Notes: generated from the letters alone by a model not told the origin. DNA of 64,000 nucleotides from Eledone cirrhosa (GCA_964016885.1 OZ024742.1:225184001-225248000); one strand, 5' to 3'; shown: positions 3,653 to 51,100, counted from the stretch's first letter. A program made the numbers and translations.

Positions 3653-3795
3653 CTGTAAACCGCAGATCATAGATCTTTCACGAAACATCTATGATCTGCG
3701 GTTTACAGCTGATGAAGGCTTTCTTCTCTTGTTTCGTCCATACTACCATCTTAAACTTTGTTTACAGTAACCACACAGCTCATTTCGTTTCTTTT
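3653..3795 (+). mobile_element. Short fold-back insertion in (TA)n; truncated member of the permuted-hammerhead repeat family
   Basis: Inverted arms CTGTAAACCGCAGATCATAGA / TCTATGATCTGCGGTTTACAG, GAAACATCT...TTACAG-CTGATGA-AGGC, and a 3' end homologous to 41470-41545. Confidence 0.7.
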
Positions 3796-4469
3796 ATATA
3801 TATATATATATATATATATATATATATATATATATATATATATATATATATATATATATATATATATATATATATATATATATATATATATATAATAAAT
3901 TGAATATTAAAACTCCACTACTGTTCGGAAACAGTCAAGACAAAGGGGGAGTAACACGACAAAATATATTGGTCAATGTCCAGGGACGGATAACACGAGG
4001 CAGTATAATCGTTAGGTTACATAAGACAATTAGCAGGAGAGAGAGAGAAGAAAATTTAATGGCGGTTGTAGATCGAAATTGTTTCGATTGTATCGCTTCA
4101 TTCCGTCTCCAATTGTATTTATACATATGTATATATATATATATATATATATATATATATATATATATATATATATAAAAACAAATAACGAAACGAAATT
4201 AAATTTCGTTTTGTTTGTAACTCACTTTTGTATGACTGACGCTTAAACAATTAAGTCAAAAATGTACATCCACATATGTATACTGAAATACTAGTATGCA
4301 TATGAATACACACACGTATACATATGTAGATGTACCAAGTTTTTCACTGGTCACTTTACTGTGAGTGTCCAGCTATTCTGTATGTAAACACACAGACAAA
4401 CCGGTTTTTAGAGTCATACTGGTGTTTGAGGAAACACCTTTCCTCTATTCTCCAGAAAGCCAGACAAGG

Positions 4470-48100: not shown

Positions 48101-51100
48101 TCCTGTACACAGCTAAGTATTCTATAAGTCTCTAGCTGTGTCATTCTCGATAAAAGCACTGGATATGTAGTCCTGATGATTTCTAACGAGAATGAAACGC
48201 GTAGATTACTTCCCTTGCTTTTATCGAGAATCTAATTGTAATACGTGACGTATTCTATTCTATAGCGATTAGGTCTTCAAAATGTTTATTATAAACATAC
48301 AGAATATTTTCGAATATTCTATGTCTATATTCACATATATATCGCTATTTCAGAGCATTTATTCCAATTTCTAATTTCTGCCGGACCGGCAACTGCTCTT
48401 TCAAACCAGTTCCTGTACACAGCTAAGTATTCTATAAGTCTCTAGCTGTGTCATTCTCGATAAAAGCACTGGATATGTAGTCCTGATGATTTCTAACGAG
48501 AATGAAACGCGTAGATTACTTCCCTTGCTTTTATCGAGAATCTAATTGTAATACGTGACGTATTCTATTCTATAGCGATTAGGTCTTCAAAATGTTTATT
48601 ATAAACATACAGAATATTTTCGAATATTCTATGTCTATATTCACATATATATCGCTATTTCAGAGCATTTATTCCAATTTCTAATTTCTGCCGGACCGGC
48701 AACTGCTCTTTCAAACCAGTTCCTGTACACAGCTAAGTATTCTATAAGTCTCTAGCTGTGTCATTCTCGATAAAAGCACTGGATATGTAGTCCTGATGAT
48801 TTCTAACGAGAATGAAACGCGTAGATTACTTCCCTTGCTTTTATCGAGAATCTAATTGTAATACGTGACGTATTCTATTCTATAGCGATTAGGTCTTCAA
48901 AATGTTTATTATAAACATACAGAATATTTTCGAATATTCTATGTCTATATTCACATATATATCGCTATTTCAGAGCATTTATTCCAATTTCTAATTTCTG
49001 CCGGACCGGCAACTGCTCTTTCAAACCAGTTCCTGTACACAGCTAAGTATTCTATAAGTCTCTAGCTGTGTCATTCTCGATAAAAGCACTGGATATGTAG
49101 TCCTGATGATTTCTAACGAGAATGAAACGCGTAGATTACTTCCCTTGCTTTTATCGAGAATCTAATTGTAATACGTGACGTATTCTATTCTATAGCGATT
49201 AGGTCTTCAAAATGTTTATTATAAACATACAGAATATTTTCGAATATTCTATGTCTATATTCACATATATATCGCTATTTCAGAGCATTTATTCCAATTT
49301 CTAATTTCTGCCGGACCGGCAACTGCTCTTTCAAACCAGTTCCTGTACACAGCTAAGTATTCTATAAGTCTCTAGCTGTGTCATTCTCGATAAAAGCACT
49401 GGATATGTAGTCCTGATGATTTCTAACGAGAATGAAACGCGTAGATTACTTCCCTTGCTTTTATCGAGAATCTAATTGTAATACGTGACGTATTCTATTC
49501 TATAGCGATTAGGTCTTCAAAATGTTTATTATAAACATACAGAATATTTTCGAATATTCTATGTCTATATTCACATATATATCGCTATTTCAGAGCATTT
49601 ATTCCAATTTCTAATTTCTGCCGGACCGGCAACTGCTCTTTCAAACCAGTTCCTGTACACAGCTAAGTATTCTATAAGTCTCTAGCTGTGTCATTCTCGA
49701 TAAAAGCACTGGATATGTAGTCCTGATGATTTCTAACGAGAATGAAACGCGTAGATTACTTCCCTTGCTTTTATCGAGAATCTAATTGTAATACGTGACG
49801 TATTCTATTCTATAGCGATTAGGTCTTCAAAATGTTTATTATAAACATACAGAATATTTTCGAATATTCTATGTCTATATTCACATATATATCGCTATTT
49901 CAGAGCATTTATTCCAATTTCTAATTTCTGCCGGACCGGCAACTGCTCTTTCAAACCAGTTCCTGTACACAGCTAAGTATTCTATAAGTCTCTAGCTGTG
50001 TCATTCTCGATAAAAGCACTGGATATGTAGTCCTGATGATTTCTAACGAGAATGAAACGCGTAGATTACTTCCCTTGCTTTTATCGAGAATCTAATTGTA
50101 ATACGTGACGTATTCTATTCTATAGCGATTAGGTCTTCAAAATGTTTATTATAAACATACAGAATATTTTCGAATATTCTATGTCTATATTCACATATAT
50201 ATCGCTATTTCAGAGCATTTATTCCAATTTCTAATTTCTGCCGGACCGGCAACTGCTCTTTCAAACCAGTTCCTGTACACAGCTAAGTATTCTATAAGTC
50301 TCTAGCTGTGTCATTCTCGATAAAAGCACTGGATATGTAGTCCTGATGATTTCTAACGAGAATGAAACGCGTAGATTACTTCCCTTGCTTTTATCGAGAA
50401 TCTAATTGTAATACGTGACGTATTCTATTCTATAGCGATTAGGTCTTCAAAATGTTTATTATAAACATACAGAATATTTTCGAATATTCTATGTCTATAT
50501 TCATATATATATATATATATATATATATATATATATATATATATATATATATATATATATATATATATATATATATATATACATACATACATACATATAT
50601 ATATATATATATATATATATATATATATATATATATAAATATACACGGGTGTGTATGATTGTGTATAGAAGATTATGTTAATAAAAGGAATTCCAACTTT
50701 GTCTGATTTACTCGTTTTATTTACAATCCTTTAAAATTATAATGGTATTATAATGAAATAGTATGGTAGAATATTAAATGTTAAATGTTAATTGAACAAG
50801 TACTTTCATGCTTTTGCAATCTTCAGGTTCATATTCAGTGGTGACAGTCAAGTTGGCAATTTTCAAGCGTGTTTCTGTGTCTGTGTGTGCGTATATATAT
50901 ACATATATATACCAATAACATAACTGTAGCCGACAACGGTATTATACTGGAATATAAATCGGAGCGGGCGTTGTGGATTGTGGGTTGCGGGGCGAAAATT
51001 TTTATTAACGAAAGAAAACAAACTCATGTCACACACATCTTGGCATTTTTCCTCATCAAATCAACAACAAAAACTAACAAACCAACCAAACAACCAAATA

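Follow-up and report, generated by a model that had tools for sequence, protein, structure and literature searches.

Two-armed hammerhead and Penelope-like insertions in (TA)n tracts of Eledone cirrhosa pair one long with one short end

The window analysed here is a 64,000-nt stretch of the Eledone cirrhosa genome (GCA_964016885.1 OZ024742.1:225184001-225248000), a 3.0-Gb genome with abundant microsatellites. An initial annotation, made from this sequence alone, listed six insertions inside (TA)n, each with an antisense arm on the left and a sense arm on the right. In every case the left part is antisense and the right part sense, and TA runs of 21-100 nt lie on both flanks, except for one of 12 nt at 29468; five of the six fit the description fully. 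Within each family, the outer ends of the arms occupy two fixed positions, one long and one short. The weak case is a family C2 fragment at 3653-3795 (plus strand), which has the TA flanks and the polarity, but in which the sense arm (3681-3795, long end) is preceded only by a 22-nt inverted piece (3653-3674) and ~6 filler bases. The end of this short left arm is non-canonical, stopping ~50 nt before the short site of its family.

The family A array is built from a 310-bp retrozyme-like unit, each copy with a minimal type I hammerhead. Its left arm (42804..45030, minus strand) holds 7.2 units with 7 hammerhead cores and has a long end (unit position ~165), and its right arm (45029..50503, plus strand) holds 17.7 units with 18 cores and has a short end (unit position ~135). 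Family B has a 466-bp unit, with 2.4 units, two type I hammerheads and a long end (position 301) in the left arm (4175..5273, minus strand), and one type I hammerhead (5379-5450) and a short end (position 227) in the right arm (5271..5655, plus strand). Both families are non-coding tandem arrays in which every unit has a type I hammerhead and the GC content is below 50%; the longest ATG ORFs in the A and B units are 30 and 50 aa. Circular folding predicts both units to be more self-paired than 30 shuffles (z -3.6 for A and -12.4 for B), and the Rfam HH9 match for B, at 37.7 bits, lies under the gathering score. By the sequence criteria for non-LTR retrozymes, A and B are putative members of that class with predicted self-cleavage. 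A diverged A-related family, followed at 15 loci, led to another non-coding tandem family with no ORF. A minus-strand hammerhead element at 50640-50870 (core at 50826) lies directly against the TA run to the right of the A array, and its family forms outward pairs at loci L262 and L277. Family B sequence also occurs in contigs of several organisms among the public runs, so the family reaches beyond the E. cirrhosa genome; among the matches listed for runs carrying family sequence there was no RNA run.

The family C insertion consists of a left arm (28392..29099, minus strand) of a ~800-bp non-coding unit with a long end, and a right arm (29098..29468, plus strand) with a short end and a rewired hammerhead motif at ~29335-29415. 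A further family C copy (41264..41558, plus strand) has a long end and the clearest rewired hammerhead (41377-41460); an inverted family C fragment lies at 41169-41251, with a TA run between it and this sense copy, and the ends here do not match the canonical ones. The family D mini-element (42294..42497) joins a 68-nt minus arm with a short end to a 136-nt plus arm with a long end, each with one type I hammerhead core. An older D-related two-armed insertion at 16930-17110, with a long minus arm and a degenerate plus arm, adjoins a TA run at 17117. In A, B and D the minimal type I cores lie on the sense strand of both arms.

A Penelope-like element of the Hydra clade (family H) occupies 38303..40961 on the minus strand, 5'-truncated and with a long end; it meets an inverted plus-strand arm of 92 nt (40960..41051) with a short end, the tail difference being 146 nt. 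Its ORF fragment (39645-40919) encodes part of the reverse transcriptase (RT), the CxCx5C linker and GIY-YIG, with an early stop, and a Pfam search with this fragment returned no family. A small hammerhead-bearing element (38932..39097, plus strand) is nested in the internal TA tract of the Hydra element. Family F (37794..38231), absent from the initial list, has head-to-head arms in (TA)n and a 33-nt tail at the right; a hammerhead was looked for there and none was found. The units of the families are mutually unrelated, save for the hammerhead core common to A and D and simple repeats.

The window also holds a 3.3-kb degenerate CAC trinucleotide tract (7430-10746), two oppositely oriented tRNA-like Rfam matches that may be SINE heads (15906-15976 and 16195-16265), and a 40-bp satellite array (17173-26682) broken by a minus-strand LINE RT ORF (23052-24737, Pfam RVT_1). 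A 25-bp minisatellite of 68 copies lies at 32362-34065. Two tandem LINE copies, 74% identical and with endonuclease and RT ORFs, occupy 51857-62706, and an inverted fragment lies at 29989-31464.

For a genome-wide census, each family was searched against the genome, with scoring of the 40 top DNA candidates or the 99 top protein candidates in each search, and arms were mapped in 20-30 loci per family. After duplicates and window copies were removed by hand (L126, L139, L183, L184, five L042 clusters and the copies of the window), and with family G excluded, 204 clusters were sampled. They comprise 86 head-to-head, 1 tail-to-tail, 1 complex and 116 single-armed clusters, part of the last number being split two-armed copies (some H and F singles). 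The two-armed fraction is 14/21 for A, 12/21 for B, 26/38 for D, 13/34 for F, 15/28 for H, 3/30 for C1 and 3/32 for C2; C1, C2 and G are mostly single-armed. A TA run of at least 10 nt adjoins 221 of 253 canonical 3' ends, against 439 of 19,013 random positions (2.3%) in 400 kb of arbitrarily chosen DNA. The same 400 kb gave 23 type I hammerhead matches, compared with 0 in 800 kb of shuffles, and the inverted hammerhead pairs of the same family found in it point outward in 4/4 cases. The internal TA tract of the Hydra element is empty in most copies and occupied in five, including that of the window, which identifies TA as a pre-existing target. The census that the initial annotation had put forward as a check, for outward polarity (86 against 1) and for (TA)n enrichment, came out in its favour on both counts, and the (TA)n geometry is real and genome-wide. 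Loci L243-L282, drawn from arbitrary DNA, contain many more TA-flanked palindromic elements with one-sided extensions, and there are many such families in the genome.

The distance between the two fixed sites is 33 nt in A, 73 nt in B, 40 nt in C, ~69 nt in D, 33 nt in F and 146 nt in H. Both ends are canonical in 68 of the 86 head-to-head clusters, with a non-canonical end in 15 and the remaining 3 running past the fetched DNA. Every canonical two-ended pair combines a long with a short end (68/68). Because the C, D and F queries contained the long end, only A, B and H, whose queries forced no end type, form a clean subset, and there the pairing is again complete (31/31). In an unselected test of family A with exact end-plus-TA patterns, we counted 1,164 short ends in the whole genome; long ends, which were counted on the forward strand alone because a gap inflates reverse counts, numbered 774. 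The first 97 Mb of one contig (contig C1) contain 48 long and 38 short family A ends, which form 30 head-to-head pairs within 15 kb (median span 2.4 kb), long plus short in 30/30, as well as 3 tail-to-tail neighbours known from pattern positions only. That there are two fixed ends, paired one of each, is a rule overlooked when the insertions were first described. The long/short difference is the 'tail' of Penelope-like elements, going by the available text of two earlier papers (PMC8557442, PMC3846280), and in vitro the tail corresponds to the interval between two RT start sites in the portion available of a third (PMC11167929).

We favour an explanation in which priming is two-ended, at two fixed sites and likely on one RNA, with a probability of roughly 0.7. 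A Penelope-type RT/GIY-YIG protein would cut both strands of a TA tract, and both break ends would prime reverse transcription, one at each fixed start point, likely on a single RNA. Both cDNAs would then extend towards each other; the product begun at the downstream site would in most cases displace or run past its partner, and 1-5 nt of microhomology or short filler would join the two 3' ends. Failure of the second priming would leave a single arm. For A and B, multi-unit arms might arise because the template is either a monomer circle or a multimer that was left uncleaved. Priming from both break ends, already suspected from the window, gains from the outward polarity, the long-plus-short pairing and the non-nested Hydra arms described below, and two primings at fixed sites are, on the sequence evidence, highly probable.

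The arms of a given locus resemble each other closely. In family A, one locus haplotype runs through all units of both arms, and there are at least 10 haplotypes among loci; arms differ at 3/3,624 positions within a locus and at 621/39,864 between loci (12 loci). The corresponding figures for family B, 19/4,777 and 518/47,803 (11 loci), show a smaller advantage than in A. The B locus L071 is 3% diverged, yet has identical arms, and the window arms of B have two private states in common. Gene conversion between arms could mimic shared haplotypes. Arms with common locus-private variants point to one RNA template, and both arms were probably copied from one RNA molecule.

Whether that template was closed is a separate matter. 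Inner ends lie within 5 nt of the ribozyme cut in 1/37 and 1/35 cases (expected 1.3 and 0.8), and this indifference to the cut points to circular or uncleaved RNA as template. No single-unit variant in family A was seen by eye to reappear in the other arm at an equal unit index, unlike the expectation for a heterogeneous linear source. Family B locus L081 carries mixed variants, which are not expected of a pure monomer circle. A circular template for the A and B arrays is plausible, and we put it at about even odds.

The two primings might instead have taken place on two separate RNAs, one per dimer subunit, with linear read-through of homogeneous source arrays and no circles. Most long arms extend beyond the short site, as two separate RNAs would more readily allow, and uncleaved RNA is the main in vitro substrate in the available text of PMC11167929. 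Rare variants are present in several units of one array at L033, L038, L044 and L048, so arrays also grow after insertion, and at the family B locus L078 one arm switches to another subfamily, as if copied from two templates. Separate RNAs do not readily account for arms that match each other far better than they match other loci despite the diversity of family A haplotypes, and they would require some asymmetry to yield strict long-plus-short pairing. Three long arms (L094, L095 and the second cluster of L150) moreover end within the tail, as if colliding. We consider two RNAs unlikely relative to two-ended priming on one.

At the central junctions, arms overlap by 2 nt in A, 3 nt in B and 2 nt in C, and probably by 2 nt in H (38303-41051) if one adjoining mismatch is a point change. 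The initial annotation had reported 2-3 nt of microhomology at the switch of both arrays; this holds for the two window copies and is not universal in their families, since the 28 A and B junctions comprise 14 with 1-5 nt of overlap, 1 blunt and 13 with filler, some of the filler calls being inflated by a nearby point change. Junctions of D copies at L135, L140 and L143 carry two to four reiterated 10-13 nt copies, like repeat addition at a template end, as would be expected of RT slippage or end-joining repair.

A single priming followed by fold-back or self-priming (or a self-folding antisense transcript), with endonuclease trimming leaving the tail, has already been proposed in print, in what is available of PMC3846280. 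It would suit D and F, which are near-perfect palindromes with a recurring apex, and the 3/13 family A junctions that lie at a symmetric unit position; the recurring apex may also reflect palindromic source copies whose hairpin halts both RTs. Two Hydra copies speak against it. At L093 each arm has sequence missing from the other, and at L094 the long arm is made up solely of tail sequence, which is absent from the short arm; with arms non-nested in this way, neither can be copied from the other. In addition, the longer arm may bear either end type, and no single-unit variant appeared by eye to be mirrored between arms, though variants may postdate insertion. Fold-back is accordingly improbable as the general route.

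Translations from L083-L085 show that element H has RWK, DKT and CxCx5C motifs and a single ORF with C-terminal GIY-YIG and no CCHH. The element is ~3.4 kb long with an internal microsatellite, and resembles Hydra-1_Obim as judged by eye. An intact Penelope-like ORF, which had been named as something to look for, is present at L084 as an open Hydra frame of ~785 aa from the first Met. Element H is, by its sequence motifs, a member of the Hydra clade. The initial annotation had taken the element at 38303-41051 for Naiad-type; its endonuclease is C-terminal and it has DKT instead of DKA, and with N-terminal GIY-YIG and DKA both missing we rejected the Naiad clade. A pattern search of the Hydra pLTR found no CUGAnGA core, and a variant form is possible. 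Other flanking ORFs with a Penelope-type endonuclease are, by their motifs, putatively Neptune-like, Poseidon-like and of further Hydra families.

The link to Naiads concerns family C. In its hammerhead, the upstream strand of stem II comes first, then the cleavage site, GAAA and lastly CUGAnGA. Pairing in stems I and III is kept across C1, C2, G and L272 despite different sequences, and the rewired pattern has 0 matches in 800 kb of shuffles. A stem II formed from the bases directly after CUGAnGA is paired in 144/350 cells, against 323/350 with the upstream strand, the latter figure being inflated by the search for the best offset. Besides the two in the window, rewired hammerheads occur at L272:9432-9521 and L279:1396-1485, in at least three unrelated repeat groups. 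By eye, the same 3'-end fold is present in the record before Naiad_Ovul (by file order probably Naiad_Obim) in the available supplement of PMC8557442. With the fold common to family C and a published Naiad, C is the one family for which a link to Naiads is plausible. One search of the E. cirrhosa genome with a 19-nt Naiad 3'-end motif gave no match, which does not imply absence; at 30 loci of family G, the second rewired-hammerhead family, no Penelope ORF adjoined within 1.5 kb.

The proposal that a single Naiad-type enzyme mobilises all the families together with the autonomous element draws on their common geometry and target, on the preference of Naiads for (TA)n in the available text of PMC8557442, and on the family C fold. 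The autonomous element is of the Hydra clade, and Hydra likewise targets (TA)n, according to the same text. The tails (33-146 nt) differ in length and sequence and are without significant mutual similarity: pairwise alignment gave none significant after 15 comparisons (best p ~0.04; Hydra vs D p ~0.08). The tails of Hydra, D, F and B have a GTG..GTTAC motif, which was spotted post hoc and is a lead only. Two-arm frequency also varies by family, with family C mostly single-armed, and the one motif search located no Naiad. A Naiad-type enzyme for everything is very unlikely, and so, with tails this unrelated, is any one enzyme serving all families. Because the tails are not significantly alike, no partner enzyme was assigned by sequence. 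At least two Penelope clades probably take part: Hydra in the case of the element itself and possibly of D, and a Naiad-like one in the case of C. Since the footprint is common to the Hydra element and the repeats, Penelope-type mobilisation of the hammerhead repeats, as first suggested from the window, is upheld, and these repeats are likely non-autonomous passengers of Penelope-type enzymes.

An assembly or long-read chimera, or independent insertions colliding in TA tracts, is hardly credible: no contig piece among the matches listed from four runs spans the family B junction (the individual may lack the insertion) and TA runs are dense (1.96 per kb), but the ends are fixed and asymmetric, filler bases occur, locus-private haplotypes are common to both arms, the arms at 28392-29468 have diverged (84%), there are ~1,200 family A short ends across the genome, and the central junctions contain no TA.

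Two-ended priming could be cast more broadly, as a rule in which a Penelope RT/GIY-YIG dimer binds a single RNA (a circle in the case of retrozymes), starts at two tail-flanking sites and carries out twin rolling-circle reverse transcription from either side of a (TA)n break, with clade-specific passengers including Naiad ones that have a rewired hammerhead. We regard this version as tentative, somewhat short of an even chance; if true, the dimer/rolling-circle rule would account for inverted pLTRs, for tails on one side and for the giant two-armed retrozyme arrays. The origin of inverted, tailed Penelope insertions has been a question of two decades, and arguments about the enzyme that mobilises animal retrozymes have so far relied on co-occurrence and on similarity of pLTRs. 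A coupled two-site footprint on an autonomous element and on unrelated ribozyme repeats is direct genomic evidence of Penelope-type mobilisation, and yields a precise prediction for the in vitro system already in use. A further implication is a one-step birth route for several-kilobase satellite-like arrays and DNA palindromes.

Among known systems, the order of cleavage site, GAAA and CUGAnGA in family C is that of the type-SGC hammerhead as given in the available text of PMC10085705; here stem II apparently forms with an upstream strand, and the setting is an animal genomic repeat. In the portions available of its description (PMC8557442), the Hydra clade has C-terminal GIY-YIG, RWK, DKT, CxCx5C, no CCHH and (TA)n targets, as does element H, which differs in its ~3.4-kb length with an internal microsatellite and in that the pattern search found no canonical hammerhead. 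Metazoan retrozymes (PMC7229834; 10.64898/2026.07.22.740005), for which Penelope mobilisation has already been proposed, share tandem non-coding type I units, low GC and a self-paired fold, as far as the available texts go. Two-armed geometry, tails and TA targets are not described in those portions, the hammerheads here are minimal and Penelope-like, and circles here are hypothetical. In the literature searched, largely outside subscription journals, no paper listed on Penelope elements or retrozymes described retrozyme arrays in terms of 'twin priming' or 'head-to-head', and strict long-plus-short coupling did not appear in the texts consulted.

L1 twin priming, as set out in the available text of 10.1101/2024.08.27.596794, similarly has one RNA primed by both nicks, outward 3' ends and joining by microcomplementarity. 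The L1 type was rejected, as both starts are fixed and poly(A) is absent: the two arms begin at two separate fixed sites, the second 33-146 nt off the first rather than at a chance internal position, and the arms usually overlap nearly fully. With purified Poseidon protein (PAc), each strand is nicked and extended, and reverse transcription begins at two tail-bounding sites; an AT-rich target, a predicted dimer and the use of uncleaved RNA are further points in common with the present case. In the available text (PMC11167929) no difference in start site was seen between strands and the two sites are not tied to the two arms of one insertion. The structure also matches that of EN+ Penelope insertions, for which an inverted-plus-tail structure and TA targeting have already been published (PMC3846280, PMC8557442). 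The available parts of those papers describe a head-to-head 5'-truncated inverted copy, a one-ended tail, partial tandems and (TA)n, and put forward self-priming or endonuclease resolution in place of two primers. The head-to-head inverted copy, one-ended tail and (TA)n target are all found here, where any target-site duplication would be masked by the TA runs, and in E. cirrhosa the footprint extends to non-coding hammerhead arrays, with tails of 33-146 nt and strict long/short pairing.
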